Shown: positions 6,575 through 59,575 of the stretch, piece after piece
Layout of the letters: each line of letters starts with the position of its first letter
Position numbering within the stretch: position 1 is the stretch's first letter
Source: Eledone cirrhosa
Lineage: Eukaryota
Reading direction: 5' to 3'
Assembly (NCBI GenBank): GCA_964016885.1
Contig: OZ024742.1
Location: 267,344,001 to 267,408,000, forward strand
Length of the DNA: 64,000 nt
Notes under the pieces: generated by a model
The model's input: the letters and a program-made list of their open reading frames with translations, nothing else
Told to the model about the DNA's origin: nothing
The model's database searches: none
Program-made: the position numbers and the translations under genes

Positions 6575-8900
6575 AGAAAATAAGGAATTTTAAAGCACTC
6601 TCTTTCCTTTACCTTTCCTATGGAAATACTTCATTTAAACAGCTCCCACCGGGAATGATCGAAGAATATTCAATATTACATATATGATGCGCACCTTCTA
6701 GCCCGATAAGTTGAGCACCCTACAGTTTCAGGAAATTAACTAACATACACCATGGACTTTTCTGGATTGGATTATTCTATCAAAACTATTCCTACTCCTT
6801 CTAACACCACTCAGATCAAATTATTAATTGACAAAATTGAACAAGTCATAAAAAGAATGAGATGGAAGGCGATGATTTTCGATGGACAATTGTGTGCTGA
6901 TTCTAATGACTACTTTGATATTAAATCACGTAAATACCCACCTAGAAGTAAGGACATGGCCAACTTGGAAATAGACCTAGTTAACATGATAAATGAATTA
7001 AAATACCGTAAGTACAAAAACAATTTTCAATCCAAACTCTTTAACGACATTTTCTAATTTTAAACACTCTAAAAATACTTTCATTTTTTCTGACAAAACC
7101 AAAAGTCTTTATGAAGTTAATGACAATTCGTATAACCAGCTATTAACAGATAGTATCACTGCTAAATACCAAAAACCTAACATTAATACTCATAATACCA
7201 TTAATAATGAAGCTAAAGCTCTAGCTAGTACTTTAAAAATTGATAACCGAAATGAAAGCCTAACCAAACGTAAATAATATATTACCCTTAAAGACCATAA
7301 ATCAGATTTACTAATCCACGTAGTTGTAGACTAATCAACCCTGCTAAATCCGAAATTGGTCTTGCGAGTAAAAGAATCCTAAGAAATATAATACTTCAAA
7401 TAAGAACTAAGACTGACTTTTCCCAATGATTAAATACTCCCTCTGTTATTTCTTGGTTTAATAATATACAAGGAAAAAATAAGTGTAGATTTACCCAATT
7501 TGATATTGTTGATTTTTAATCCTTATTAACTAAAACCTTAGATTTTGCTAGACTTTTCATTAATATTTCTAAATTAGAAGAAGATGTTATCTTACATGCT
7601 AGGAAAACACTACATTTTGCTAATGAAGGTTACAAAATCAAGCCCTGAAAACCCTTTTGATGTCGCGATGGGCTCATACGATAGCACCGATGTGTACGAC
7701 TTAGTAGGATTATTCGTCCTCCACACCCTGAAAGAGAAATTTCCTTGCCATAATATGGGTTTATACCGAGACGATGGTTTGGCAGTTTCTCATACCACAA
7801 ACGGCCATATCTTGATAAATTCCGTAAAGACTTTTCTAACACTAAACACAATAACAGGAAAAGAAAAATTATTTGCTTTACACCTCACTTCTCGCTAACT
7901 GTTAAAACTAACGTAGGAAGAACATTCCTCGAACTTCTAGACACAAAGTTTCCCCCTAATCATAGATATAATAAGATATTTAATAGAAATTTAGTTAAAG
8001 TCAGCTACTCTTGCTGCCCATCAATGAAAATTAAAATTACCAACTCAAATGGTACTGGAGGAAATCCGGGATGCAGCTGCAGGAAACCGGAAGAATGCCC
8101 ATTACATGGCAAAAGTAATACTAAATCCATTGTGTATGAGGCCGAGTTTGCAGCAATTGTTAATAACCAGCTAGCCAGAAGTGAGAAATATGTTGGCATG
8201 ACTCAGGATAGATTTAAAACCCAATATTATGCACATGCCACTACTTTCAAAGACCCTACAAAAAGAACAGCAACGGCGCTGGCAAATAAAGTGTGGGACA
8301 GAAATATTCCATACTCTATTGATTTTAAACCCCTAAAGGCAATACCAAAGGGGCACAAAGAAATATTCTTTGTGTACTACGGAAACATTTAGAACTCTCC
8401 AAAACCTGAAAACCCCTCCCACTTGCCTCGACTCTAAGACCAAGATCTTTAGATGTTGTCCGCATCTGAAATTGCATCTACCTTTTAGCTGGATTAACAC
8501 ACCAACGTTTCCTCTTTACATATCACACCTTCCACTCACTACCAACATCATCACCTTATGAACACTACTTCTTACCAAGTTTATCATATAAACACATACA
8601 TTCTACCAATATATACATTTTTTCTCCCTCATGTTTATATATTTTTTTCATTTGATTTATAACCCCCCCCCCCTTCTTTCTATCATACCTTTAACACATA
8701 CACACCCACCACCTTCATCCTGTATTCTACCTTTACCCATATCACTTTTTAACTATGTACCCTTATCCAGATCTCTCACAATTTATACACCCATTTTCTC
8801 CCTCACCTGTTTATCTTGATTTATTATATTATTTTATTTTAATTATACTCTCCCACGTCCTCACTTGCCCACAATGTTTTTAAGTCTACTCACATATGAT
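6575..8900 (+). mobile_element. Near full-length decayed Naiad-like PLE (ORF about 6752-8500)
   Basis: N-term YSIKTIPTPS..LIDKIEQVIKRMRWKA; SDKT; LKDHK..SCRLINPAKSEIG; QFDIVDF; FDVAMGSYDSTDVYDLVG; GLYRDDGL; CSCRKPEECPL; IVYEA..YVGMTQDRFK; internal deletion after the RT core. Confidence 0.9.
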
Positions 8901-9825: not shown

Positions 9826-10547
9826 TATATATATATATATATAGTATTAAGGATACTATTTATGGTTATGTATATAATAAAACCTTATATGGATTGTATA
9901 ATGGACATGTAGTATATAAATTGCGTTTCCTGGATTGTGTGAGTGGTGGTGGGTGCGAGGACAGTGGTGCTGTTTTGCTTCTCATTTGTTATATTTTTGG
10001 TGTTTCTCTACAAACGGGCTTACACGTATATATCGTACAGGTGTGTGGGGAAAATGCTTTAACAATACAGACCCCATGATGCTATTGATTGCCTGCTTTA
10101 ACTGCTTGTTTTACATGTATCAATCTGCCGCACTATAATACTGTATAAATAAGACACGCGTGCATGCCACACGTGAGACTGTTTCGTACACTGACTACTC
10201 TAAACTTTCCTCTTGCTTTATCTTCATAAACTGCCAATGTTTTATTTTTATTTTTATTTATTTAAATTTTAATTTTAACTTTAATTTTGTCCTTTAATAT
10301 GAATGTATGTAAATTGGCATATTATTATATTATTATGATGGATGTCAACCCACCGTGGGTCAATATATACATATGTTTTTATATGTCTCTTGTGTTGAAA
10401 AGGAGGACAAGTATGTAAAAATCAATAAATAGTTGCTCCGAAGAATCCAAACCTCGGTTTGGAGGAAACAATTGTAAGCAAATAAATGATTTAAACTGAA
10501 CTTTGATTCATGTAATTTCTCTCTCTCTCTATATATATATATATATT

Positions 10548-16013: not shown

Positions 16014-16703
16014 TGATATATATTAATAATAAATTATCGTTGTAATGTAATTAGATTATATAATTGTTATTTTATAAATGATCTTATAAATATTATTGTA
16101 AGATGTATAAAAATATTTTCAGACTTTTAATATACCCAACTACAAAAAACAATCAGTATTAAATAAATATATTTTACATAATAATTGTTATAGTTGAATT
16201 AATAAAAATTAAATATTACATACAAATAGTCTAACATAATAATAATAAAATATTCTAACATAAAACGAACAATAATATGGACAAATATACAAGTAAATAT
16301 GATACAACCAATATTATAAGCATGTTATAACGCACCGTAGAAAAAAATATTTAATATAAATTTTAAAAATCCTATATAAATTAACAATATAACTTACCGA
16401 AACGAGAAAAATATTTTGATGATAAAACGACGAGATACAGGAGGAAGACTCGAAAGCGAAACGACAAATAAACGTGCAAACAAAATGGCGGAGATTTTGA
16501 GCAACAATTACTCCGTTTGGTTGATGAGCCAATAAGACGATGAAATTAGCCAATAAGACTATACATTACAAAACATGTTTGGCAGTGATCACCACGGCTA
16601 GCGACACCCCTTTTTTTATTCACAAGCTACGCATATATGCCAGACACGCAGACTTAAAACATTCTGTTGTTAGTCACTGCGTGTCTAACATATATATGTG
16701 TAT

Positions 16704-16753
<50 letters not shown>

Positions 16754-18052
16754 GCCTATATATACATATACATATATATATATATATGTGTGTGTATACG
16801 TATATATATATATACATATATATATATACATATGGGTGTGTATATGTATGTGTGTATATATATTATATGTGTATATATGTATAAATATATATATATATAT
16901 ATTTGTATATATGTGTATGGAGAGATATGCATGTGTGTATATTTAGATTTTACGTTTTTACTGAGTACATGTGTGAGTCTGCGCCTCTGTGTGTGCGCAT
17001 GTGTGAGCAAAAGATCACACGTTTATATGTGTGTATTCGTATTTCCATTTAGACGCACATAAACTTATGTGAGAATGTGTATGTTTACGTACTATTACGT
17101 ATAAGCGTGTGTTTGAGTATGTGTAACTTTATGTTCTGGATATTTATTTATATATTTTTCCCCTCAATTGTTTTGCCCGTTATTTGATTTCAGCCTCACT
17201 CTCATATTCTGCTTTCAAATCCATATTTAATAAACATTCTGTTATTCATTCTGACGACTGAAGACAGATATAAATAAACCACTGGTAAATGAAATAATTA
17301 TCTTATGTTGTTTATTACATAACTAAAAAACTCTGTAGCCTACATAGAGCACTCTCTTTTACTTTACCTTTCCTACGGAAATACTTCATTTATATATATA
17401 CTTATATTCTCCGCGCTTCTTCAAAAGCCGAAAATTCGGCTTCGTGCATTCTTTGTTTACACACTGATGTCTACCTTTCAGTCTCTCTGCCTTTAGAAAG
17501 TTGTTGTCCAGTTATATATAGCTAAGATGACAGGAAGAGAGTTATCATTGGTTTCTTAGCTTAAAGGGTAAAGGATCTTGTCGATACTTGGAAGATAGGG
17601 TGTTCAGGTCCACATAGCCGTCCTTGGCAAATTATTTTTCTGTTGACTTCAAATTTACTTTGAAATATACACCTGTGCGCCTTCATGTCTAACAACAGGA
17701 ATTCTCGACAGAGGATCATGTGCTGTTCAAGAAAATTCATATCGTCATCGTTCATCTTCCGCACAATAAAATATTTGGGATAGAGCGCAACCGGAATTTT
17801 CGAACTACTTGACAACTATTCACCATTCAAGAGCGATCGTAATAACGACTATTAAGGAACTGATTAAGAAATATACCAATTGCGGTTACATCGCTATTGA
17901 TGAAACCCATCTGATAGATGACAGGAGTAGACTAAGTGTGTGAAACCTATTACTGATTTATTAATTCATAAATACCAACTGCGCACAAGTTATTAGGTCC
18001 TTTTTCTTTCATCTTTCATCTGTATAATTAAACACTTATATATATATGTATG

Positions 18053-18166
<114 letters not shown>

Positions 18167-18818
18167 AGTGTGTGTGTGTTTGTGTATGTGTGTGTACTGT
18201 AAATAAAAGCTTAATTTACAGATATTGCACATTGAAAAGTTTATTGAAAACTAATTGCGGGGAAATGTTCTGAATCAAATTAAATAACTTGTAAATTTGT
18301 TTGCTTTCTTAAAATCAATGAGACATTCAATATTTGACCTGAGCTGCCTCTTTTAATGCTTGAATTCTTCCTCATTATTTGTTATACTTGCGTCATATAA
18401 AATCTCCCATTTATTTTTCTTTTATGCTTTTCAAATGGGAGAATGTCTGTATTGGAAATCTTTCTTTGAATATTTGCTATATCTTCTCATGTATAGATTT
18501 CTTGTTCGCTATTTCAGAATATGTATCCTGTTTGCAACTCTGCTATTGAGCAATCTTTAACTAGTTTTACTTTCATCATGGTATTCGTGTTCCTGCAGAA
18601 ATTCCAAACATTCAGTCTTAATGGACCATTTCTGAGGTGGTTTAATTAAATTTGCAAAGAAAGCGGAGTATTGTTTAGTTTTTAATCATATGTTTCAATG
18701 TTACTATGTATCTATATTGAAATTTACTTTTAATGGAATAGTTAAACTACTTCTCCCCCCCTTTCTCTATGTACACACACACACAGACACACACATACAC
18801 ACACATACACACACACAT

Positions 18819-18894
<76 letters not shown>

Positions 18895-19753
18895 CTAGAT
18901 GTATTTTTTATCCATGAAAGTTGCGTAATGACTTCTCGTTGATGAACGGGTTTATGCAGGTAGAGCACTCCACGTCAAGAGCTTAAAGGTGGTGATCAAG
19001 CGTAACAAATTCATCAGGTATAAAATAAACATAAACAAAAGACAGAAGTTACCTAATCGTATTTATTATTATACGTATTTCTGTAACACTGGCATGGAAC
19101 TGTTGTACAATCATTACAACAGCGACCTGCACCAGTGTAACGTCATCAGATGTTTACACAATTATGTGGGTGGTTCGATATGTGGTTGGCTAACGCAAAC
19201 ATACAGGTGCAGACCATTTGTAACGTTTGCACAGCGGCAACATGCTGGTATCACAGGTATACGTATAATAATAAAGATGATTATGTAACGTTTGTCTTAA
19301 TTATTTCATATATATGTACATACATACATACATACATATATGTACATACTTACACCCCCCCCCACACACATATATATATATATAGGTGTGTGTGTATATA
19401 TATGTATATATAAGATATTGATTAATACGTAACATCATTAATCATATTTTCTAACAAAAGTATAGTTTAACGAAAGTGTTAAAGCTAGTCACTGTTAGAA
19501 CATAAGGTGAGCTTTACTAATATAACATTTAAGTATTTACATTAAGAGCAGTGGAATCTATGGTGACTAGTCATCTATAATGTGTTTAGTACGATGAATT
19601 TCCTACTGATGATTGAGTTTTTCATCTTATGTTGCCTTCCAGTTATCGTTTCTCTCGCCCTCGTGAAACAACTGTATAGAAATATTGACATTTCGGAACT
19701 TTACCATCTGTTTAATTTCTTCGGCTTTCTGTGAAAGATTTCTTTGGCAATGC

Positions 19754-19829
<76 letters not shown>
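19754..19829 (+). repeat. (TATC)n microsatellite at the 5' flank of Tx1 element A
   Basis: Pure ATCT repeats. Confidence 0.98.
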
Positions 19830-20045
19830 CTTTACGATGGACACATGTGCTGAGCTCGCTCGGTAAGTTTTGTTTAAATTCATCCGGAAATTGTAAACTG
19901 TGAACTTTCATTTTTGTACCATTTTGTAGAGGGACTGCCAGGTCAAACTTTGATCTGGTCAGTCTCTCAAAATATTCTACGCCTTTAGGCGAAATAGTTA
20001 AACAAAAAAAAGTTTTTTCTTGTTGAAAAGTCAATATTTTTTAAG

Positions 20046-21601
20046 ATGGCCGAAGCTTCTTCACCAAAATTCGAAGGAGGAAAGGGCAAGATAAACTTAC
20101 AGCTTCCCCCTGACACTGTCACAGTAGCAGAGGTCAAGAAGAAAGGTCAGCCAGAGGAAGAATTCTCTCCACCTGTTAACCGACAACTTGACGTTGCCAT
20201 GGCAACAACCCAAAGAACCAGCGGCACCAGCAACAGCAACAACAACAATGCGACGGACGAAAACAACACCAATAACAATAACAACAACAACAAGACCAAT
20301 AACTGTGACAACAACAACAATGATAACAACAACACCACCAACGACAACAACAACACAAACAAACAAAGTTTCTCCTTCGCCGAGACGACAAGGAAAACCC
20401 TGGACTATCTGCCAGTAGATATAACCAAAGCGAAGGAGCTACCGGCAGATGCGAAAAAATATATAGTGTACGGGGAAAATGGTTAATTCACAATCCATTC
20501 CCCCCCCCCGGAACTAAAAAGCCAGAGACTCCTAAACACGGTCATGTTTAGGACAATCTCAAATAAAAGTAAAAAACCAGCTCAACCATCACAGAGTGAG
20601 ATAGAGCTGGTTTTAAAAGACGTCATGAAGGACATCACCTTCATTCAGAAGGATAGACTCTACGAGCCTCGAACTTGTAGTTCAAATGAGGCCCGAAAGT
20701 ATCGCCCAGATGCCTGAACGCGTCATACTGGATGATCTAACCTTCATCAACATTACCGTTGAGGGTAGACGGCCCTCGTGTTACCTCTGCGGAACCAGAG
20801 GTCACCTGAGGGCTGTCTGTCCCCAACTTAATAAGAAAACCCCAATCCTGCCTACACCACCAACAACTGCACAACCAACACAATCACCACAACTACCACT
20901 ACAAAAACAACCACCACAGCTCAAACCAAAACAAAACAATGTCCAACCCATCCCCTCCACTCAAAAAACAAAAACAATTTCCAAAACACCCGCACCGCAA
21001 ACACAATCCGAAAATATACCCCTCCCCCCCAACGCGGAAGATGACTCTAGTTCGTCGTCAGACGAGGAGGAGCACCTCCACACAATCAAAAGAAAAAAAA
21101 GAAAACACACCTCAGACACACAAATGAAAACAACCCCTCCCCAAAACATAACACTGACACCAACACAAAAGAGCTCACAACAACAGCAAATAAAAAACAC
21201 CACACAAAAACAAAAACATGCATACACATACATAAACACAAGAAACAAAAAAACTGTTAAACATTGTGTACAACAACAATCTAATAAAAACACAAGGGCC
21301 TAACTTCACCCAGGCAGGGGATTTCCCCCACCTCAAAATGATTAAGGCCCCACAGGACACCTATAAAACTTTAAAAAACAATTTTAAAGAGGACGTGGGT
21401 CCCCCCTGCGTCGGGCTCATTAACCGCGTCCTCATAAAAAACTACCCTACCCCCTCCCCAAACACCCACACAACTCCAAGCTCCCCAACCACACAACACA
21501 CTGATGCCCCTACACTTCCACAAACCACCACCCCACCCAACAACCCATACCTCACCCTAATGGAAATTGTGCAGCCCGATACCCGGGACGCAGAGAGGTA
21601 A
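20046..21601 (+). pseudogene. Tx1-A ORF1 (gag-like nucleic-acid-binding protein), frameshifted
   Basis: Poly-Asn N-terminus, SFAE motif, PERVILDD, zinc knuckle CYLCGTRGHLRAVC (20779-20820), Pro/Thr/Lys-rich tail; homologous to B ORF1. Confidence 0.8.
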
Positions 21602-21625
21602 GTGCCTTTTCTCTTCACCACCAAC

Positions 21626-23998
21626 ATGGCTATGCTAAGAGCAGGCTGTTTAAGTGCGCGTGGCCTGGGCTCAACTTGGAAGCAAGCAATGCTTCTAAAT
21701 GACCTCAGGTCACAACGTATAGATGTGATGGTTATTTGCGAGGCCCGGATCAGCAACGTGCGACAGCTGGCCCCCACCTTTGATGACTTTGAGATGCACG
21801 CATCTCTCTGTCAGCCCGGAGGTGGGGGTGGAGTTGTCGTTCTGCTGCAAAAACATCTGGGTCTCGCAACACAGATGGTACATTTGGACCCGGAGGGTTG
21901 ACTAGTGGTTCTGGACCTTGGCAGTGGTAAAGGCGGAGCGTTTAGGTTGGTAGCCGCCTACGGCCCTTTCGGGTCAATGCGGCCGGACTTCTTCCATCGT
22001 CTGGAGACTTTTCTGGGGACGTCCCGCTCCTTGCTATTAGTGGGGGACTGGAATGGAATCCTAGATGCACGCTGGGACTACGTAGGGGCCTGTCCCGATA
22101 GAGAGGGGTGTAATAGCCTCAAAGGGTTAATCGGTCGATTTGACCTGGCCGATAGATATCGACTAGATTTTCCGACTGCGCCAACCTGGACTTGGGCAAA
22201 TCGTAGCGGATCATCTAGGTCGTACCTAGATAGGTTCTTAGTTAGAATTAAGGATAAGGACTTTTTAAGTTGTCCAAAAATGCGCATGGTTGGCTATTCA
22301 GACCACAAGTTAGTGAACTGCATGATCAACCTTGACAGAACTCATAGACAGGGCCCCGGTTACTGGAAGCTCAACTTGTCCTTACCGGCAAGTAAGGCTT
22401 ACAGGGACCGGATTAGCACTTTAGTTAAGGAGCGGTTGACGGGCGCCATAGTCAACAGCAGGTTGTGGGGATCTCTCAAAAGAGAGATTAGAGTAGTCTT
22501 AATAGAATTTAGTAAGGAGTTAGCCTCCAATAGAAATAGGAAGGAAAGGGAGTTGGTAGATAGTGTAGAAGAGGCAATTAGAAGCGGCGACGTGGCCAGA
22601 GTGCTAGCGTCGAGAACGGACCTGGGCCAGTTCTTCGACGCGAAACACGAAGGCTGCATGGTCCGAAGCAAAATACGTGCTCTGGGAAACGAGGGGACCA
22701 AAGCTGTTAGCTGGGCCCGCGTGACAGAAGCCAAAAGAGGGAGCAGATCCACTATCCGGTCTTTGCGAGACCAGGATGGACGGGTGATCCTTGAACCTAA
22801 GCAGATGTGCGAGGCTTTTCAAAAGCACTTTGCCGGATTGTTCGGAAGGGGCGGGGGACGGTTGGGGACGTGGACTTCGGTCCATACCTCGACGGCCTGC
22901 CGCGTCTCTCGGAGAGGGAGGCGAAGTCCTGCGAGGAGCCGATTTCAGCCGCTGAGATAGAGGACGTGCTGAGCCAATGCGGCAAACGCAAATCCCCGGG
23001 TCTCGATGGTCTTCCATACGAACTATATCTAGCTATGCCGGACTTGGAAGAAGCGGGCTCCTATGGTGAGGAGATCCATCTGCTGTCAACACCCTTCGAA
23101 AGGAGGGCTGGGGATGCCGTGGCTAATGATACGTAAACACGCATTAAGGCTACGGCACCTTCAGGTATTCCTCTCCGGTCAACCGGTGTGGGCCCCGTTT
23201 GTGAGGCGAGCCTTTCCCAGACTCGTCTCACTCACCGAGCTGCAATCCTGGGTCAAGCAAAGACCGAGAAAACTGGGCGCCTGGCACACCGAGTGTGCCC
23301 AGGCGCTCACGGTTCTCTGGCAGGCGGATCCGGCTGTCAGTGGAGAATCCACCTCGTCATTCTACAGAGGGCTGGTGGTTAGCAGGTGCGACGACGCCCT
23401 CGGAGAAGCCTTAGGCATGGAGGAAGACGAACTGGCAAACCTGTTCGGTAGGACATTCAGCCCGGGACCCATGGATAACTTCCAGAGGTCGCTGGCCTGG
23501 CAATGCTACAGAAGGGCTCTGCCCGTTCGAGAAAGGCTCTACAGACACGGGCGCCCGGGTAGGGACCCATCGAAAAAGATCTGTCCCAGATGCGTGTGCG
23601 ACGAGGAAACCGTTGCACACGCACTGGTACACTGCTCGGGCATTGCCGATCTGTGGGGCTATGTCGAACAACTGCTGTCAAGGGTGGGACCGATCCGGTT
23701 GACCACCGAGTCTATTGTAACGATCAAGCCGCCTCCCCTCTTCAAAAACGAAGGAGAGGCGGTGTTAATGTGCGTAATAGCCATGGCGAAAGAGGTTGTA
23801 TGGTGGACGCGTCTGAAAGGACTGAGGTCAGACACCTTTCTCTCTGGCCAACAACTGGTCCGTTTCTTCCGATATCATTTCGGAAGAAGGATCAGGATGG
23901 AGAGAGAGGTGCTGCACCCCAGCCGTTTCTATGAAAGATGGGTGAAAGTGGCGAGAATGGCCCGTGTGAATGGGCCTTCACTCTACATCAGACTATAG
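21626..23998 (+). pseudogene. Tx1-A ORF2: APE endonuclease plus C-terminal Zn domain, RT core missing
   Basis: GCLSARGL, ICEARI, LVAAYGP, GDWNGILD, WTW..SRSYLDRF, SDHKLV, GYWKLN, KSPGLDGLPYE, then a direct jump to KGGLGMP...CPRC. Confidence 0.9.
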
Positions 23999-24261
23999 GT
24001 GAGGAAGATGAAAGACCAAGGGAGCACCCCTTCTCTGTGCTCCTGAGGAGAAGGGTTGCACACTTTTTTCGGGGGTGTGTCCGACCCCACAAGGCGCCTC
24101 CTCTCTATTGAGGACTTTATTATAAATTATATTTTTTGTTATATTTTATTTTATTTTTATATATTGTTATTGCCTCCTCCTTATTGAGGACGCCTTGTTT
24201 TGTAAACTCCCCCATTGTACTTGTCCCACTTTTGATGCCTTGGTGGCAAATAAAAGAAACA

Positions 24262-24310
<49 letters not shown>
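24262..24310 (+). repeat. (TATC)n microsatellite
   Basis: Pure repeats after the Tx1-A 3' end. Confidence 0.98.
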
Positions 24311-24460
24311 CTTTTATTTTTTGTTATATTTTATTTTATTTTTATATATTGTTATTGCCTCCTCCTTATTGAAGACGCCTTGTTTTGTAAACTCCCCCCA
24401 TTGTACTTGTCCCACTTTTGATGCCCTGGTGGCAAATAAAAGAAACATATCTATCTATCT
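24311..24460 (+). mobile_element. Second, about 135 bp Tx1-A 3' end followed by (TATC)3
   Basis: Near-identical to about 24130-24261, ending aaataaaagaaacatatctatctatct. Confidence 0.9.
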
Positions 24461-24669
24461 CTCTGACGCGTGGAACATCGCCGGTAAGATTTTTTGTAAA
24501 TTTATATACGAAAAACAGAACAAATTGTTTGAAAAAACATATTATTTTGTAGATTAACCACCAAGCTGAATTGTCAGCTGGGTGGTAATCCCATTTTTCG
24601 CCCCTATAGGGGCGAACATTTTATTAAATTAATTGTTTTAAAATAAAAAAAATGTGCAAACTATAAAAT

Positions 24670-26584
24670 ATGAATAACACGAAGGGAACGCTGGAGAACG
24701 CCAATAGAGAAAAGAGAGAGAAAGAGGCAGATTTTAACGTTATATCTGCTTCTGCTACTATGGATGTCGCCATAGATACGACTGTCAACAAAGAGGAAAA
24801 AATGTTACCACTCGAAAATTGTACAATTTTTACCGTCGAAGCGGAGAAAAATAACACCAACTCACATGAAAACACAGAAATTAAACCTATTAACATACAT
24901 ACACATGAAAAAGACATCAACAACTCCACAGATACATCTACACATAAAGTTTCACCTCGTCAAGGAACTGAGATTTGCAACACCGAGGCTAACAACGATA
25001 ACAACAACAACAACAGCAACACCGCACAAAAAAAGAAAATGTCTTTCGCTGAAACAGTGAACAAAAAACAAGATTTTATAAATATTGACATCTCCAATGC
25101 GAGAGATATGCTCCAGCAAGGGAGAACATTTGTAACTTTCGATTTATAACTTTAAAGGTGGGTTTAGAATTAACTCAACCCTTGAAATAAAGGAAGACAC
25201 AGGTCGTAGATCAGTCACCTTTAGGACTGTGTCCAATTCCACGAGAAGGACGATATTTGTTAGTCAAGCAGATATAGAAGCTACTTTCAAGGAAATTCTA
25301 GCAAATATCGATTTTCTCCAACGAGGAAAACAGTACGGAAGTGTTTCCGTACTGTTTAAAAGCGAGGCACTCGCCCCAAAACATTCTGTGACACAAATGG
25401 TGTCAAAAGCATTCACCTTTTTCCCTACATACATGGGGAAAAGGACACAAAAAATAAAAATAAAAAATATACCCCCAAATATTAAAATCTGGTGGATCTT
25501 GGCTGGCTTCGTAGAGCCAGAAACTGATATAATTCTTTTGATACGAAAGTTTATTCGACAAAGGTGAGTGGGTACTGATTTGGAGATTCTGTTGCAAAGG
25601 AGGCCGGAGAGAATCTCCAAAATACCCGAAAGAGTCGTCATTGATGATAACAACAAAATAAACATTTCGGTGCTTTCGCTGTGGTAACACAGCACACCTA
25701 AAAGCCTCTTGTCCTTCACAAACACACAACAACAACATCATTAAAAAAACACTATTACCATCACCAACACCAAAACAACCACCACCACTACAAGTACAAC
25801 GACAGACGAAACGAGCAACCACACCAAAACAAACAGACACTCAACCAACAACAACAGAAAAAAACAGAGACAACACCCCTGAATAACACAGCCCCACCAC
25901 ATCCCACTCCATCAAACACTACCACAAACACACACACCGAAATACCACACAACATACCCCTACCCCACACATCTGACGATGATTATTCGTCGACGGATGA
26001 AGCTGTTTCTACTTCTTTAAGTGAAGAAGAGGGAGAGCAGCGGAAATCTAAAAAACAAAAAAAGAGACACCACAACACCCCCCAAAAAACCTCCAATCAC
26101 CAACACCAACACACAACCACAGACACAAACAACAACACAAACAACACCACAGTCAAACATCCCTCTATTAGCAAAACCAACATCAACAGCACCAACAGCC
26201 CCAAACACAAGCACCCACCATAAAAAGAAAACTCCCGGTCGAACAACAAACTAAAACAGCACAACAAAAACACAAACAACAATACGCATACATCAACACA
26301 AATAACAAGAATTTGATGGAGGTCATCTTCCAAAACCCCAAGGTGGAGACAGAGGGCAAAACTTTCGTCAAGGCAGAATCGTCTCCACTACCTAAACTTA
26401 TAAGGGTTTCTATGGAAACCTATATTGACCTAAAAATAAATTTTCACAGGACGTGGGCAATCCCTGCCAGAAACCCATCAAATCAACCGCGTCCTATTAA
26501 ACTGTTTCCTCACCCCACACCAACACTCCATCCAGCACCCAAATGGAGATTGAACAACCCGATCTCCATGAAACGAAAAGTTAA
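24670..26584 (+). pseudogene. Tx1-B ORF1, frameshifted
   Basis: Poly-Asn, SFAE, PTYMGKR..KIKIKNIPP, PERVVIDD, knuckle CFRCGNTAHLKASC (25671-25712). Confidence 0.8.
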
Positions 26585-26625
26585 GTGCACCGTTCGCCCT
26601 TTTTCTCCAACTCTTCTTCACCAAC

Positions 26626-29600
26626 ATGGCTGGTTTACGAGTTGGAAGCGTGAATGTGTGTGGCCTAGTGATGCCCTGGAAACAGGGTCAACTTTTAAAC
26701 GACCTTAGGTCACACGGTATGGATGCGATAGCCATCACCGAGTACAGAATCCACAACAGGCAGCAACTAATCCCCATCTTATACGACTTTGAGATCTACG
26801 CATATCTCTGTCAGCCAGGAGGTGGGGGTGGAGTGGTTGTCATGTTTAGGAAGAACCTGGATGTCGAAGTACAGCAAGTACACTTTGACCCGGAGGGTAG
26901 ACTGGTAGTCCTAGACGTCAACAGTATTGGAGGTGGAGCCTTCAGACTGGTGGCCGTTTATGCACCGACCAAGCAATCGCAATCACGGCCAGTCTTCTTT
27001 ATGCGTCTAGAGTCCTTTCTGGGAACGTCTCGCTCCTTACTTTTAGTGGGGGACTGGAATGGTATCCTAGATGCACGATGAGACTATGTGGGAGCATGTC
27101 CCAGTAGAGCGGGGTGCAACAGCCTCAAAACTTTAATCGGCCAATTCCAACCGGCCGATAGGTATCGACTGCATTACCCGACTGCACCACAGTGGACGTG
27201 GGCAAACCGCAGCGGGACATCTAGATCGTATTTAGATAGGTTCTTCATTAGAGAAAGGGACAAGGAGATGTTAAGCTGTCCACGAATGCATATGGTTGCC
27301 TATTCAGATCACAAATTAGTCGTCTGCTTAGTCAACCGTGATAGAACACATAAACAAGGACCCGGATACTGGAAGCTGAACGTGTCGTTGTCGGCACGTA
27401 AAGCTTACAGTGAATGGGTAAGTAGACTAGTCAAGCAACAATTAACGGGAGCCATCGTCAACAATAGATGGTGGTACTGTCTCAAGAACACAATTAGAAT
27501 AAAATCGATAAGGTTTAGCAGAGAGTTAGCATTAGAGAAAAACAAACTAGAAAGAGAACTAATAGCCAAGGTAGAGGAGGCACTTAGAAGTGGCAATGCG
27601 GCTAGAGTGTTAGCGTCTAGAACGGCACTGGACCAGTTCTTCGATGCGAAACCCGAAGACTGCGTGGTCAAAAGCAAAACACGTGCTCTAGGAAATGAAG
27701 GAGCGAAACCTGTCAGCTGGGCCCGAGTGGCGGAGACAAAAAGTGGCAACACGTCCACGATTCGGTCTTTGAAAGATCAAAACGGACGCGTGCTACTTGA
27801 CCCCGCGATTATTTGAGCAGAACGACGGTGAGCCGAACGGGGCAATGAACTTTAGTTCATACCTCGACGGCCTGCCGCGTCTCTCGAACACGGACGCCGA
27901 GTTCTGCGATAGACCAATCACGGATACTGAGATCCGGGACGCTCTGGGCCGCTGCGGGAAACGCAAGTCATCCGGTCTAGATGGTCTGCCCTATGAGTTT
28001 TACATAGGCATGCCGGACTTGTTCTCTGGCATCCTCGAAGCCGTCTACTGCAATTGGCAGCAGAACGGGAGCATTCCCAGTTCTGCAGGAAAGGGCGTAG
28101 TAACGCTGATCAGGAAAGACGAGAACAAGAGGGACGAAATTAACAACTTCAGGTCCATAACTCTGCTCAAATCAGAGTTAAAGATTTTGGCCAAGGTGCT
28201 AGCGACGAGGTTGGCGCTTTTCGTCGAGAACATGGTAGGGAAAGCGCAAACGTGTGCAATCCCGACCAGGTCCATACACGACAACCTCCACCTCATGCGA
28301 TACATCATAGAGAGTGTGGGTAGTAAACCCGGCTTTGGTGGGGCTCTGATCAATTTGGATCAGTCTAAGGCATTCGATAGGATCGACCATCGATACTTGG
28401 AAGCGGTTCTCAAGGAGGCTGGTTTCGGTCCCGTGTTCAGAGACTGGATCGTGGCGATGCACACCAGCATCTGCTCGAGGGTCAAGGTGAACGGCTACCT
28501 ATCGGAGCCGTTCGCAATCACGCGTTCCATTCGACAGGGGTGTCCTCTCTCCTCCATTCTGTATGTATTGACTCTAGAACCACTACTGCGGAAATTGGCG
28601 CTGTTGCAGGGCATCTTCTAGAACCGGGACTGCTTAAAGCGGCGTCGGCTTATGCCGACGACGTGACGGTAATGGTGTCGAAAACCTTGGAAATCGAGGT
28701 AATCGGCAACTTACTGAAAGAACACGAAACGCTGACGGGAGCAAAACTAAACCCAGACAAGTCTGTCGGTTTGCAACTCGGTACGTGGAGAGGCAAACCG
28801 ATGACGTCCGACAGCATCGTTGGACGCTGGACGGACGGACCGGGGAACTTGCTCGGGATCTGGTTCGGTCCGACCTCCAGGTGGAGAAAAACTGGAACGA
28901 GCTCACGGCCAAGGTGTTTGCACTCACTCAGAAGTGGGCAGAGTGCAAACTGTCCTTGAAAGGTCGAGCGGAGGTGGCGAACACTTTCATAGCGTCCGTC
29001 ATCTACTACCGCTTGACTGTCGTGCCTTGTCCCCGTGAACACCTCGCCATGATGGAACGCATGCTCATCCAGATTCTGTGGAAGAAGCAGGCTCCGCTGG
29101 TGAGGAGATCCGTCTGCTGTCAGCACCCTTCCAACGGAGGGCTGGGAATGCCATGGCTGATGATGCGCAAACATGCGCTGAGGCTGCGGCGTCTCTAGGT
29201 ATTCCTCACCGACCCCCAACCGGTGTGGGCACCGTTTGTGAGAAAGGCTATCCCACAGCTCGTCTCGCTGACGGAGCTGCAGTCCTAGGTTAAGAACAGA
29301 CCGAAAACGATGGGCGCCTGGCACATTGAATGCGCTCGGGCGCTCACAATCCTGTCAAGCGGGCGCAGCAATCAGTGGAGACTCCACTTCGATATTATAT
29401 AGAGGGAGTGTAGGTTACAAGGGCGCCGACGTGCTCGTGGAGACTCTGGGCGTCGAAGACGATGAGCTCACTAGTCTGTTTGGTAGGACTTTCCGCCCGG
29501 GACCTATGGACAACTTCCACAGGTCCCTGGCCTGGAAGTGCTACCGAGGAGCTCTACCGGTTCGCGATAAGATCTACAGGCACGGACGCCCCGGCAGAGA

Positions 29601-30033
29601 TCGTTCCAAGAGGACGTGTCCAAGATGCGCGCAGGACATTGAAAAAGTCCTGCACGCAATTGTACACTGCCAAGGCGTAATCGACCTGTGGAACTATGCA
29701 GAACAACTGCTGTCGCGTATGGGACAAATCCAGTTGACTGCCGAGTCCATAGTAAGGATCAAACCGCCAGCTTCTTTCAAAAACGAAAGAGACGCGGTTT
29801 TCCTCTGTACGATGGCTATGCTGAAAGAAGTTATATGGTGGACGAGATTGAGAGGACTAAGGACAGATGCCTTTCTCTCCGGATAACAATTGATTCCCTG
29901 CTTTAAGTATCACTTTAGAAGGAGAATCAGAGTGGCGTGAGAAGCACTGCACCCCAGTAAATTTACTGAAAGGCGAGTGAATGAAGCGAAAATGGCCCGA
30001 GTGATTGGGCCTTCTATGTTTATAAACCTGTAG
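26626..30033 (+). pseudogene. Tx1-B ORF2: APE endonuclease, reverse transcriptase and C-terminal Zn finger
   Basis: GSVNVCGL, GDWNGILD, SYLDRF, SDHKL; NNFRSITLL..ELKILAK, LDQSKAFDRIDH, IRQGCPLS, AYADDVTV, GGLGMP, CPRC..E...HAIVHC; several stops and frameshifts. Confidence 0.93.
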
Positions 30034-30248
30034 GTTGAAGAAGAGAGCAAAAGGAAGAAAGGAGCACTTGCACAACACGCTCCTTCAGTTGATGGTTGTT
30101 CTATCGACGGGGTATTAAACAACCCATATTGGGGATTTCGATTGTTGTAATTGTTTGTTTTTATATTTTTTACACGACTGTATGTAAAATCCTCGGCATG
30201 ACTTTGTATTGTCCCCTTTTCTTGTGCGCCCTTGTGACAAATAACGAA

Positions 30249-30300
<52 letters not shown>

Positions 30301-30304
30301 GTCT

Positions 30305-30340
<36 letters not shown>
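30249..30340 (+). repeat. (TATC)n microsatellite at the 3' flank of Tx1-B
   Basis: ATCT repeats with one interruption. Confidence 0.97.
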
Positions 30341-30372
30341 GCATCTCTATCTCCCCCCCTCTTTCTCTCTCT

Positions 30373-30411
<39 letters not shown>

Positions 30412-30414
<3 letters not shown>

Positions 30415-30757
30415 CATAATTAAATTTGTCAGGTATATTCATAAAATCTCAAACGAAAGAGATCACTAAAGAGAACAAATTCAGAGAAGCTAATATATAT
30501 ATAGAATATCTAATCAAAAACACTGAAGGGTAGATCCCAGTAGTCAGGCTTCCTATATTTAGGTTGTTTGACTGTGCGTATATTCCTAGGAAAAGATACT
30601 TTAGAAGTGTTCTGTAGAGTACTTTAGTGGGATCTACCCTTCAGTGATTTTGTATAATATACTCTCTCTATATATTTGCTTATCGGAATTAGCTCTTTTT
30701 AATGATCTCAATTCATTGTAATTTTATGTATATTCGTGACAAATGTTATTATGTATA
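30412..30757. repeat. Diverged inverted repeat (pLTR-like); central part repeated directly at about 31025-31105
   Basis: cactgaagggtagatccca versus tgggatctacccttcagtg, with arms extending to tatacataat/attatgtata. Confidence 0.7.
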
Positions 30758-31129
30758 ATACATACTGCTCATAATAAATGATAAGCTGTTTGACAGCCTG
30801 TTATTTCTTGTGGCTTTTTAGGCCTGTCATTTTGTATGTATGTAAAATATTTACACCATGCTAGATCGATGAGAGATGACAAAGTTTTCCCCAACAGGTA
30901 TCTATATTATTCTTATACATTATAGAATCTTTCCGATCAGGAACTGCTCTGGTAATGATGGCCATATCAATATATTGAGATGGGTAGATTTAATGCCATG
31001 GTTCAGAAACTGCAATCAAAGTGATTTTTAGGTTGCTTGACTGCGTATATCCCTAGGGAAAGATTCTTATGAAGTAATCTTTAGAGTGCTTTACTGGGAT
31101 CTACATCCCCGTCCCCCTCTCTCTCTCTC

Positions 31130-31214
<85 letters not shown>

Positions 31215-31303
31215 GGATGGTAAGAATCGATCTTGTAACACTTTTATTCTCAGATCTTCTTATATTATATGGGTAACTTTATCTAGACAATTATATATAT
31301 ATG

Positions 31304-31335
31304 CTAGCAGTGGTACCCGGCGTTGCACGGGATAA
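31304..31335 (-). mobile_element. Helitron 3' terminus (hairpin plus CTAG)
   Basis: Minus strand cccgtgcaacgccgggtaccactgCTAG; matches the terminus at 44077-44105. Confidence 0.65.
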
Positions 31336-33003
31336 AGTATTTAGGAACGCAGGCCGCCAACAGACCTAATCGTGGAAAAACTTCATGCCTGGACAATATG
31401 TAAAGAAAATAAACCGAATACTCTGATGGCTGGATAATCTTTAAGATTTTCCTCGATGAAGGAGGAAAAATGCAGGTTTTCACGTAATGCGGGCCCTTTG
31501 AAATTTTGAAATTGTTGAATATGAATTGTGCTGCAGATTTGATGAATTATAGAACCACACTCAAGGCAATGTGTGACACTAGATATTGACTTCCGGCCGA
31601 CCCAGGAGGGGTCACACCCGACTGTGAATGGATTACAGCCTCCGGATTCAGTAATCTATACGAAAACCACGTGGCGGACATATAAATAACATAGCTGTCA
31701 TTGACAGTTTTAGTCGTGAGTTTTCTATATATTCTACAGAAATTTGCTCTCACTCTAATAAACCCGCTTCTTATTGTAACCATATCTGCTTTTCCTTCAC
31801 TCTGCCATAGGTAATTCCGGAAGCGGAGTTTTCTGTATACACTTTCTCTCTATGTGAAGGGATAGCCATCACGATTTACATTAACTGTGGTATAATTGTA
31901 TACGGTATGACACTTGGTTTGATGCCGACTCGGCCATACAGTGAATTTCACTTGGGACGTTGGGTTGAGTGACCGAACGTGAGGACGTTGGGGGATGCCA
32001 GTTATTGCGGACCTGTCGTATTTTCAATTTTCAATTTCCTCACTGGTGTGCTGGCTGTACATATACCCTACCTTTCTTCAACTCATCGCACTTTATTCTA
32101 TTTTAGATTTTAGGTGTTTATCGCAGACCGCCTATGCGGGTAAATCCCCTGGGTATATGTTTTAGAAACATAGTGTTATCTCGCCTAACGCTCGGAACTG
32201 GAACCAATGGATGTGGTGCTTAGGGTGCTGACATGATACGGAGAATCGAGGTGTTACAAGGTGATATAACAGGAGTACACCATCCTTCCTATGGGCAATC
32301 ATACATATAAAGCTGCACCACCGCTAACCAACTATTCTTCTCACAGACCCATGCTTGCAAGCTCTCTTAATCTGCCTGTACGTACACCCTGTATTTGCAC
32401 TGCTTGTGCTTTGATGTATCTATACCATGCTTTGTTTTTTTGTTTTTTGTTTTTGGGGGTTGGGGTTGGGGTTGGGGGTGTTTTTTGTTTTTTTATTGTT
32501 TTTTTTATTGTTTTTGAGCATGCTGAGTAACACCTTCACTCATTCCTTGCTACCCTCTCCCAACCTCCTTATCATTCCTTGCTACCCTCTCCCAACCTCC
32601 TTACCATTTATGTGATAAATTTTTGATGTAATTTTTGATGTAATTTTTTATGACATTTTATGACATTATGTGCGTCATGTATTGTGTCTTTTTCTATATA
32701 GCGCTGGCCTCGGGACCCCCCTGCTGGTCCTTTAACCTTGTTCTGGTGACGCAGCTTGATGGAGCATGCAACTATTGATATACTCTTGTTTATAGCTCTG
32801 ATGATTCCTGCCATAGGGTATGGATGAAACACTATTAGCTAATAAAACAATGTATTTCTAAGCACTCTTTGGTTATTCCTAAAATTATAACGGCTCTGTA
32901 GTATACTAGTTATCCTACATTGGGCTAAAACCACATTGTCATACTAAGGGCAATATATCTGCGTGTCTGGGCACATTGATATATTTGTCAACGAAACTAT
33001 ATA

Positions 33004-38703: not shown

Positions 38704-39037
38704 AGCAAAGTAAAGAAAGGCGAAGCGATGTGAAATCATGTGCGCTACTGAGAAATACAACAATTAGTAACAATACTAAAATAAATAAATCTTGAAATAA
38801 TTTTCCAATACTGAAAATGAAATGTACCAGAGCAAATTACAACCTAATGGAGTTTTAAAACATACTGCTCGTAAACACCCGGGAACACTAAGGGATTTCC
38901 CTTGCAACATGTCAAAAATAAATCCATTAGCAACGTTAAAAACATTTCTTGTTTAAATGCTATTAGACGATTGTTTGTTTGTTGTATATTTCTGGATAAT
39001 GACAAGGGAAAATTTATCATATACATACGGACATACA

Positions 39038-39780
39038 TACGAGGTCTGTCGAAAAAGTAGCCGTTCTGAAGCTGGGACAAAACATAATTAGTGGAGTTAA
39101 TTTACCACGAAGTAGGCCACTTGTGCATCTGCACACTTATCCTAGTGATTCTTTCAATGATTGAAGCACGTCCTCAATGCCTCTTCCAGAATGGCTCAGA
39201 CCTCGTGATGTTATTACGGCCCCCAAAGTGAAACATTGAAAGGCATCTTTACTTTTGGGAAAACAAGTGATGCCTAGAGAGTGTGGAGTCTAACGAATAA
39301 GTCAAATACCTCTCTATAGCAAGAAGCTTTGGATCAGTTGCAACTAATCATCCATTGTCTGGAGGCATCTGTAAGTTTTGCGCTGAACTGCATGACGAAT
39401 ATATCGGAGGATTTCGTGATACTACTCTTTTGTAGCTGTTTGTCCTTCTAGTGTGTGTTCGCGGAGGTCAACCATTCTGTTGTCGGAGAAAACAATCAGC
39501 ATCACATTGGCTTTGCTATCCATCTGAAGTGGTTTGGCGGGTCTTGGCGACATTGGAGGTTTGCATTCTGATAACTGAGGTTTGATTTTCGGGTCACACC
39601 GGTACAAACATATTTCAGCATCTATTATCAGGAATTCAGTATCGTTGGTAGAAGTACGAGTGAAATGAAAACCCGATGAGTGTGCAACAGTACAACACAG
39701 GTGAAACTCCAGAATAACAGAATTTTTCACATCGCCATATCAAAGCACATTTACACTTTATTTCCATGTTAGTACTCATT
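39038..39780 (-). mobile_element. Mariner (Tc1/mariner) transposon remnant
   Basis: TA plus CGAGGTCTGTCGAAAAAGTAGCCG TIR-like end; DAEICLYRCDPKIKPQLSECKPPMSPRP..SKANVMLIVF..EGQTATKE is a decayed DETW..YDPE mariner segment; the second TIR was not found. Confidence 0.8.
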
Positions 39781-42289: not shown

Positions 42290-44105
42290 GGTGGAGGTCA
42301 TTGGAGGTAAATGCGACTGCGATCAGGCTCCCACAGAATGCTGTGCAGACGGCAGCTGCAGGAGCGGAGGAGGATGACAGTTGGCGTGAACTTCGACGGA
42401 ACAAAGATGCTGTCGTGACTGCTGCTGCTCGCGCTTGAGAGGATGAAGGACGACGTGCTGTTCGACGAAGCAAGGACGCCACTGCAACAGCCGCTGCTCG
42501 CGTTCGAGAGGATGAAGGACGACGCGCCGTTCGACGAAGCAGGGACGTCGCTGCCACTGCTGCTGCACGAAATACTGAAACCATAGAGCAACGACGTGGC
42601 CGACTTCTGCAAAGTGAACAGCGGCGATCATCGTTACCTGGCATTTCTAGGACTTTTAATTCACGATGATTGTTGAAGGCCTTTAACTACGACCCCTATA
42701 CCGACTACGCTGTGCTTGCCTGGAAACCTGCACGTCTACAATTCGCTTAACACTATGGCTGCTCCGAACGAAGTTGTTAATTACCCCACATCATTTTTTA
42801 ACTCCCTAGACCCTCCCGGATTGCCACCACACTTACTGTGACTTAAGAAAGGTGCCCCTGTTATGCTCCTCAGGAATTTGGATCACCGAAGGCTTTCCAA
42901 CGGCATGCGTCTGGTCGTCCAATGGGCGATGTCTTATGTTATTGACGCAACAATACTTACATGATATGGTAAAAGGGATACTGTCTTTATACCAAGGATA
43001 CCTCTCATTCCATTCGGTAAAGACATTCCTTTCACATTCAGAAGGCTGCAATTCCCTCTGCGGCTCAGTTTCGCCATGTCGATTAACAAATCACGGTCAG
43101 ACGCTGACTGGCGTAGGGCTTAATTTAGAAGAACCATGCTTCTCCCATGGTCAACTATATATTGGCTGCTCTCGAGTGGGGAGCCGACATAACCTATTTG
43201 CTTTTGCAACTCACGAGAAAATCCAAAATATAGTCTATAAGGAAGTTTTGTAGGCAGCTCATCCGCCAACAAGTAATCACTGTTTTCCTTTGTATAAGTG
43301 CTTACATTTGTTGTATTCGTGTGCTATTTTTGTCCCTTTGACAATACCACGTAAGTCTCTGTGGTTGCTTTTGCTATACGTTATAAATGTTCAATGTTTC
43401 CGTTTTCCGCATGTATATGTTGCTATTACGCTTTGCTATCGATGTTCCTAATTAATCTACTTTTCCCTACATCTTATTTACACATTTTTTTACATTCCAG
43501 CTTGATCTTGCCAAGGCCGTTTTTGTGGCCACCGAGTGTTACATGCTTTTCTAGGTTACGATCTCAAATAACAAGCAAAGCAAATACGACACACCAAAGT
43601 GGTGTGAAGGACTTCTTAAGGGCCACCACCTCTAATCCGAGTCGTCTTTGCTGACAGCTCTGCCGCTGAGACTTTTAAGAGTGAACGATCCAGGGCCCTC
43701 TTCAGGGCCACCAAGTTTAAATTGTTACCATTGGATTCATCTTTTGTGGCAGCACCACCGCTTAGATATTTCAAAGTGAACGTTAAAAGGTCCTCTTCAG
43801 GGCCACCAACTATAAATTGTTATCTCTGGATTCGTCTTTGCTGGCAGAACCGCCGCTGAGACTTTTAAGACTGAACGATCCAAGGCTCTCTTCAGGGCCA
43901 CCAAGTTTAAATTGTTACCATCGGATCCGTCTTTGTTGGCACCACCGCCGCAGAGATATTTCAAAGGGAACGTTCAAAGGACCTCATTAGGGCCATCACC
44001 TATACATTGTTACTTCTATAGTCGTGTTTAACGGAAGTCTTTCGGTTCATTTGAACGACTACTCCATTGAGAGTTATACCAGGCAACGCAGGGTACCTCT
44101 GCTAG
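42290..44105 (+). mobile_element. Internally deleted Helitron
   Basis: N-terminal R/E/A-rich repeats plus AFNYDPYTDY, fused to a PIF1-helicase C-terminus (FNSLDPPGLPPH.L.LKKGAPVMLLRNL, RLQFPLRLSFAMSINKS.GQTL, FSHGQLYIGCSRV, NIVYKEVL*); 3' hairpin plus CTAG at 44077-44105. Confidence 0.88.
43616..44015 (+). repeat. Subterminal minisatellite in the Helitron, about 95 bp units
   Basis: agggcca(c/t)ca at about 43619, 43704, 43799, 43894 and 43989. Confidence 0.88.
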
Positions 44106-59040: not shown

Positions 59041-59073
59041 TCTATATATAAATAGATAGATATATAGATAGAT

Positions 59074-59575
59074 TTCTATTTATTGCCACTATGGCGCAAA
59101 AGAAGGGGACAGATACAAGGGGGTAGTTTATACAAAAAGGCGAGTAAAGAAAACAAATAACAAATATAAAATTAACAATAAAGTCCTTAATAGGGAGGGG
59201 CTTTTGAGGGGTCGCACACCCCCCCGAAAAAAGTGTGCAACCCCTTCTCCTCGGGAGAACAGAGAGAGGGTGCTCCCTCGTTCTTTCCTCTTTTCCACCT
59301 ACAGGCTGATGTAGAGAGAAGGCCCATCCACACGGCCCATTCTCGCCACTTTCACCCACCTTTCATAAAAACGACTGGGGTTAAGCATCTCTCTCTCCAT
59401 CCTGATCCTTCTTCCGAAATGATATCGGAAGAAACGGATCAGTTGTTGGCCAGAGAGAAAGGTGCCTGACCTGAGTCCTTTCAGACGCGTCCACCATACA
59501 ACCTCTTTCACCATGGCTATTACGCACAGAAACACCGCCTCTCCTTCATTTTTGAAGTGGGGAGGCGACTTGATG
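59074..59575 (-). mobile_element. 5'-truncated Tx1 family A copy with ATCT tail
   Basis: KNEGEAVFLCVIAMVKEVVWWTRLKGLRS..YISL plus 3' UTR; followed on the minus strand by atctatctatatatctatct (59053-59073). Confidence 0.92.

Follow-up and report, generated by a model that had tools for sequence, protein, structure and literature searches.

Background

Elements that are copied from RNA normally lose their introns, and some algal long interspersed nuclear elements (LINEs) are annotated with introns. Here we describe two Tx1-type LINE copies, elements A and B, in a 64,000-nt stretch of the Eledone cirrhosa genome (assembly GCA_964016885.1, contig OZ024742.1, positions 267,344,001 to 267,408,000; hereafter the window, to whose forward strand all coordinates refer). 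The 5' untranslated region (UTR) of each contains a compact leader module with GT-AG signals, and this module is a real, conserved feature. The conserved signals likely form a spliceosomal intron in A, in B and in one of the leader types found in a sister lineage.

The best-described arrangement of this kind is found in Penelope-like elements. Penelope of Drosophila virilis has a 75-bp leader intron 46 bp past its start, which is spliced in most transcripts and kept in genomic copies, and whose deletion abolishes protein output (PMC2377424). Chlamys-3_cRei also has a leader intron (PMC8557442). Like the putative introns of A and B, these introns are short, non-coding and GT-AG, lie tens of bases past the 5' end in the promoter region and persist in genomic copies, and their splice sites are likewise conserved between families that are ~67-70% identical (PMC2377424, PMC8557442). 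However, Penelope-like elements encode a GIY-YIG nuclease and have pseudo-long terminal repeats (LTRs), whereas A and B are LINEs with two open reading frames (ORFs), an apurinic endonuclease (APE)-type nuclease and a repeat tail; the nuclease and tail rule out a Penelope-like identity. Splicing has been shown for Penelope, whereas for A and B the intron is predicted from sequence signals. Hairpins, which are predicted at the splice sites of A and B, are not mentioned for Penelope or Chlamys-3_cRei in the available parts of these articles.

Human L1 is, like A and B, a LINE with an APE-type nuclease and a reverse transcriptase (RT), a conserved UTR donor and template RNA that mostly escapes splicing. 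It differs in that its splice sites are cryptic, its introns span 500-900 nt, and its spliced copies (spliced integrated retrotransposed elements, SpIREs) form ~1.8% of full-length copies (116/6609) and are dead ends (PMC5860796). In contrast, A, B and the sister lineage share a compact donor-acceptor-hairpin module, found in more than one host, and none of the copies seen is a spliced one. Kibi and Koshi resemble A and B in their Tx1-type ORF2 and their insertion into simple repeats, although their targets are (TC)n or (TTC)n rather than (ATCT)n, and the available part of PMC4494074 mentions no leader intron for them. In the Ty1/Copia element EVD, a conserved donor and U1 set the balance between full-length and spliced RNA, but EVD is an LTR element whose intron lies in the coding region and whose RNA is packaged in particles (PMC5580714). 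In a literature search that was thin on subscription papers and Repbase reports, we found no earlier description of LINEs of the Tx1 or L1 clade with a leader intron that is conserved.

Results

Intron-like segments in the leaders of elements A and B

The leader features of the two elements are as follows.

19830..19862, + strand: element A leader, exon-like, 33 nt (repeat boundary uncertain by a few bases)
19863..19929, + strand: element A intron-like segment, GTAAGT...TTTTGTAG, 67 nt
19929..19968, + strand: element A hairpin 1, 18 predicted pairs, z-score -4.5
19980..19991, + strand: element A hairpin 2, CGCC with GGCG
24461..24483, + strand: element B leader, exon-like, 23 nt, without ATG
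24484..24552, + strand: element B intron-like segment, GTAAGA...TTTTGTAG, 69 nt
24552..24590, + strand: element B hairpin 1, 16 predicted pairs, z-score -5.8
24597..24616, + strand: element B hairpin 2, TTCGCCCC with GGGGCGAA

The donor (exon border marked by a slash) reads CG/GTAAGT at 19863 in A and CG/GTAAGA at 24484 in B, and the acceptor ATTTTGTAG ends at 19929 and 24552, respectively. The segments begin 33 nt (A) and 23 nt (B) past the (ATCT)n run. An earlier, sequence-only reading of this DNA had given coordinates, motifs and lengths for both segments, and these were exact on re-checking. The donor fits the GTRAG consensus and matches 8 of 11 positions of a U1 consensus, a level reached by 116 of the 7655 GT sites in the window; a YAG acceptor is present in both elements, and the pyrimidine tract of both is short. 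The leader of A has two upstream ATGs, while its segment has none and contains only the donor's own AG. Since no ATG occurs in any of eight introns (A, B and the group I modules of the sister lineage described below), the segment is non-coding; with the ATG-free leader of B, this rules out a coding role. ORF1 is not extended in both families by the predicted splicing.

The splice signals are better conserved than their surroundings

Elements A and B represent sister families (ORF2 DNA identity 71-74%), so the two sightings are not independent and relative conservation becomes the test. The UTRs are identical at 107 of 205 positions (52%), the donor at 7/7 and the acceptor at 10/11; the longest exact run in the UTR is the acceptor (10 bases), followed by the donor (7). 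Within the intron, 13 of the first 17 bases agree but only 11 of 35 in the middle. The splice signals are therefore better conserved than the UTR around them. The proposal in the sequence-only reading that ends and length are conserved around dissimilar middles held for the ends and the middle; it was too simple in that the first 17 bases are also alike and that the length, although kept between A and B, shifts to 175-197 nt in the sister lineage.

One explanation for such agreement would be that sister UTRs inherited a few AT-rich words by chance and shared descent. The relationship of A and B favors it, as do a strict donor-acceptor pair elsewhere in the window and the loose pattern seen in distant loci (below). 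We find it scarcely credible and already largely refuted. Among position-matched dinucleotide shuffles of each UTR (20000 each), the relaxed pattern, a GTRAG donor placed 10-40 nt into the UTR and, 55-85 nt beyond it, a relaxed acceptor, arose in 65/20000 for A and 10/20000 for B, and the strict pair in 0/20000 for either; moreover, the same layout occurs in a lineage only ~50% identical in RT. The strict pair elsewhere, the only one in 128 kb (both strands), lies at 39371-39435; it has no similarity to the elements and was dropped as a related module and taken as chance. The region around it, 39020-39700, resembles a decayed mariner-type transposon.

Other copies of family A

Four of 19 sequencing runs were aligned to 19818-20260; they contributed 401 contigs (X1), 43 contigs (X4), 0 contigs (X6) and 1267 raw restriction-site-associated DNA (RAD) reads (X17), the last of which sample few loci. 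Summed contig depth in X1, which differs from copy number, stood at 7610 immediately ahead of the donor, dropped to 1092 in the middle of the intron and reached 16452-31961 across the acceptor region. Two loose ends in X1 carry other intron middles in the same 30-base register, and from these and the depth dip the middle appears to diverge, with both ends and the length staying constant. One contig, from organism B, covers the whole segment (19841-19960) with three differences, none in the splice sites. Among the matches listed, 15 UTR substitutions were counted, of which 8 fall in the intron middle and 0 in the splice sites.

An intronless joint of 19862 to 19930 was absent from the 401 and 43 contigs and the 1267 raw reads, and no SpIRE-type copy with precise intron loss was present among the copies examined. 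Just one joint turned up, a 63-nt skip elsewhere and unrelated to the segment, in a contig of depth 6.7; it demonstrates that a rare deletion is detectable.

Predicted hairpins at the splice sites

The sequence-only reading had missed these hairpins, and the structures given here rest on single-sequence folds. In A and B alike, the first predicted pair of hairpin 1 involves the G of the acceptor AG; the two stems are alike at 18 of 38 bases, yet 18 and 16 pairs are kept. Hairpin 2 in a sister copy of A (loose end at 19975) reads GCCC with GGGC, changed but still pairing. A small hairpin is predicted over CG/GU at the donor of A (paired from -3 to +3). Across eight folded modules, the acceptor G and the next exon bases are predicted to be paired in all eight (less firmly in B), while the acceptor A is predicted to be unpaired in seven, so that the stem does not explain retention of the AG. 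An automatic two-sequence consensus fold of A and B came out of register, with only 9 pairs, 4 of which had both sides changed.

The location of the motifs, which is that of LINE internal promoters, and the palindromes flanking them would suit a view in which they are promoter DNA elements or parts of an RNA structure that merely resemble splice sites. A precedent is human L1, in whose UTR an overlapping RUNX3 site, not splicing, accounts for the conservation of the donor (PMC5860796). We nevertheless hold this to be very unlikely for A and B, as a promoter does not predict a donor motif that precedes an acceptor motif at spacings of both 67-69 and 175-197 nt, nor the C/T swap at the Y of YAG. 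Rfam searches gave 0 matches at the gathering score in the window and in six loci of the sister lineage, and E-value matches on two leaders were far under gathering, differed between A and B and were at chance level.

The hammerhead core is CUGANGA. A 5' self-cleaving ribozyme (hammerhead or hepatitis delta virus-like) was rejected, with no Rfam match at gathering score and no such core before hairpin 2 in A or B. A hammerhead built from two hairpins followed by GAAA was ruled out on the missing core and on a sister copy that lacks the G.

A sister lineage with the same layout

When prokaryote genomes were searched using an ORF2 alignment, 47 loci came up; 41 of them are eukaryotic Tx1 tandem arrays in a single metagenome-assembled genome (MAG), G001, and represent a second host. 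In ORF2, these arrays belong to a clade of 32 rows (100/100) that is the sister of the A and B lineage, with an RT ~50% identical to theirs. There were 47 junctions in G001 with enough sequence for a donor census, and 43 have GTAAG shortly (51-156 nt) past the AATAAA of the upstream element. The remaining four comprise three 5'-truncated neighbours and one member of family f10, in which the GT donor is absent from 3/3 copies (L128).

Group I (14 junctions, six leader families) has the donor CG/GTAAGAC, with AA before the border in one family; downstream of it the sequence is U-rich, then runs through a long pyrimidine tract to YAG/G. The intron length is 175-197 nt in the 12 distinct junctions measured. 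The donor 7-mer is unchanged in 6/6 families, the exon side being altered in one, and the acceptor sites are YAG in 17/17 (16 CAG, 1 TAG). As in A and B, a predicted stem starts at the acceptor G, here leaving the A and the tract unpaired, and the donor is fully paired in 5/6 leaders under a 12-bp predicted stem. No intronless copy was found: 0/17 acceptor sites is a spliced junction, and seven junction patterns gave 0 matches across L081-L128. Donor and acceptor both recur in this lineage, as the sequence-only reading would have required of other families.

Group II accounts for 29 of the 43 donor-bearing junctions and has AA/GTAAGT with a U-rich stretch but no fixed acceptor. A candidate AG occurs at 64-241 nt in 6/7 representatives, and in the largest group II family (15 copies) no acceptor passes the filter. 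Depletion of AG past the donor (0 AG in 8/11 stretches, with ~2 expected in each) is suggestive only.

The 29 group II copies lend some support to the proposal, made in the same reading, that the motifs bind U1. On this account only the donor matters: U1 snRNP docks near the 5' end, boosting transcription or blocking early polyadenylation, excision of the segment happens rarely if at all, and the acceptor, where a conserved hairpin has its foot, is a relic or plays an accessory part. The position of the G001 donor past an upstream AATAAA is consistent with this, as is the lack of intronless copies, and U1-dependent suppression of premature termination has been shown for the Copia element EVD (PMC5580714). 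However, no exact match between A and B is longer than the acceptor, YAG is present at 17/17 group I sites together with a long tract, the hairpin does not account for an acceptor A and tract that are unpaired, and element A has no AATAAA just upstream. We therefore regard docking without excision as rather unlikely, if worth keeping in view.

The arrays themselves (L081-L119, L123, L127 and L128) consist of intact elements arranged head-to-tail with a period of 6.4-6.9 kb and no microsatellite or RNA-gene target between them. Members that are 5'-truncated adjoin the 3' end of the previous element, which suggests self-targeting. These truncated members indicate that the arrays grew partly by retrotransposition, and two identical truncations that duplication contributed too. 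Near-identical ORF2 sequences occur with at least two very different leader types, I and II (e.g., L081, L093, L105 and L085), as if 5' UTR/ORF1 modules had been swapped. The last 25 nt before ORF1 form a conserved hairpin ending at the ORF1 ATG in both groups, with a foot of TAG or TGG depending on the family.

Distant Tx1/L1-like loci

A first scan of 40 distant loci yielded weak donor-acceptor pairs only, and a looser rescan found the pattern in 9 of 30 loci with at least 180 nt upstream of ORF1, a background-like frequency; distant loci thus neither show nor exclude the module. About 103 nt upstream of ORF1, two 5S-flanked loci, L029 and L030, carry GTAAGT followed by 72 nt of U-rich sequence and TGTTAG, possibly a leader intron or else chance. 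The tRNA or 5S flanks of L020, L024, L028 and L029 are in part presumed, and ARAGORN found no tRNA in these four loci. A Tx1-like element also lies between two U1 snRNA matches (L120:3036-3199 and 9961-10137) on a microsatellite-rich contaminant contig of another MAG.

The host elements

Element A (19830-24262) and element B (24461-30248) both lie within one ATCT microsatellite. The remaining features of the elements and their surroundings are listed below.

19754..19829, + strand: (ATCT)19 microsatellite, target of element A
20046..21303, + strand: element A ORF1, broken, with a CCHC knuckle
21626..23998, + strand: element A ORF2 pieces, APE-type endonuclease and zf-RVT, with stops and ~1 kb of RT deleted relative to B
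23999..24310, + strand: element A 3' UTR, AATAAA and (ATCT)12 tail
24311..24460, + strand: 5'-truncated copy of the A 3' end, 96.7% identical, plus (ATCT)3
24670..30030, + strand: element B ORF1 and ORF2 pieces (endonuclease, RT, zf-RVT), with stops and frameshifts
30031..30338, + strand: element B 3' UTR and (ATCT)n tail
59044..59574, - strand: A-like fragment, 5'-truncated, with an ATCT-type tail

The microsatellite has received three insertions, namely A, a 138-nt truncated A 3' end with its own ATCT tail, and B. Both A and B are dead through stops and frameshifts, and A also lacks ~1 kb of RT. The ORF2 pieces match Pfam PF03372, PF00078 and PF13966 (endonuclease, RT and zf-RVT), while the separate upstream ORF1, broken and with a CCHC knuckle in A, has no Pfam match. 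An ATCT-type repeat ends 4/4 element pieces in the window, and the same repeat ends the flank of another locus.

Among named sequences, the closest relatives are proteins of Argonauta hians (63-66% identity), which makes an octopod host probable. In a tree without named references, the RT of B groups with Argonauta hians proteins inside a 50-row group (98/91) that also holds U2- and 5S-flanked elements. By their targets, the latter resemble Keno and Mutsu. Tx1 families with such targets are described alongside the microsatellite-targeting Kibi and Koshi (PMC4494074). No relatives came from a scan of metagenome contigs with the B RT, of viral contigs with alignment A1, or of prokaryote genomes with the octopod alignment A3. 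Elsewhere in the window, GC-richer tandem arrays occupy 42392-42566 and 43642-44013, with units of 69 nt and 95/190 nt.

Discussion

Taken together, the signals and predicted folds favor, by somewhat better than an even chance, a genuine 5' UTR intron whose splicing is attenuated by structure and whose unspliced RNA would serve as template. The spliceosome would use the predicted sites, hairpins over those sites would keep splicing partial, and the unspliced RNA would be the form copied back into DNA. Engagement of the spliceosome near the cap may raise output at the level of transcription, anti-termination, export or translation, and the sites may be kept because of this gain. In cells in which the element is copied, structure would allow little of the RNA to be spliced, as would be expected from cis-preference and from the finding that no copy is intronless. 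A spliced copy, once inserted, would lose part of the internal promoter region and probably be a dead end.

The sequence-only reading had likewise suggested unspliced RNA as the template, with a spliced form as the mRNA, and the first of these proposals fits the retained segment, the missing 19862 to 19930 joint and the 0/17 count in G001. Because each genomic copy samples the template pool once, the absence of intronless copies implies that the pool is mostly unspliced. Combined with an L1-type cis-preference, a mostly unspliced pool would mean a small spliced share; without cis-preference it would mean a retrovirus-like division of labour.

In such a division, most transcripts would be spliced and translated, and the proteins would copy unspliced RNA only, as in Penelope and retroviruses, breaking L1-type cis-preference. 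Strong-looking sites (the 8/11 donor match), the missing intronless copies and the Penelope precedent speak for it. Nevertheless, the proteins of L1 work in cis, its spliced RNAs can retrotranspose, as the 116 copies among 6609 cited above attest (PMC5860796), and the predicted hairpins over the sites suggest weak splicing. We accord this arrangement decidedly low probability.

Several points weigh against a structure-attenuated intron. If splicing were common, cis-preference would predict intronless copies, and none is seen. No branch point motif is shared by A and B on inspection by eye, and none is convincing. The 29 group II junctions lack a fixed acceptor, the largest group II family having none that passes the filter, and family f10, having no GT donor, shows that the module is dispensable in a close relative. 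Moreover, the G001 copies are tandem and partly duplicated, so that they represent about three independent leader types rather than 47. The depth dip in X1 is not a copy count, that in X17 is confounded because reads stop at a CATG site, and the loose pattern in distant loci is background-like. Finally, the RUNX3 case in human L1 shows that a UTR donor can be conserved for reasons other than splicing.

Conclusions

An ancient Tx1 branch may have divided its RNA outright, with spliced mRNA for proteins, unspliced RNA alone reverse-transcribed and the hairpins as a switch; we consider this unlikely, but if true it would represent a LINE that escapes cis-preference, its template sorted by intron retention. 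The donor, acceptor and two hairpins make up a small, mutable module with which weak splicing, U1 docking and template choice could be separated. G001 offers a ready-made natural comparison, since leaders with the full module, with the donor only and with neither accompany ORF2 sequences that are almost alike. A conserved leader intron in APE-RT LINEs of two hosts, if confirmed, would mean that this solution is not tied to the mechanism of Penelope.

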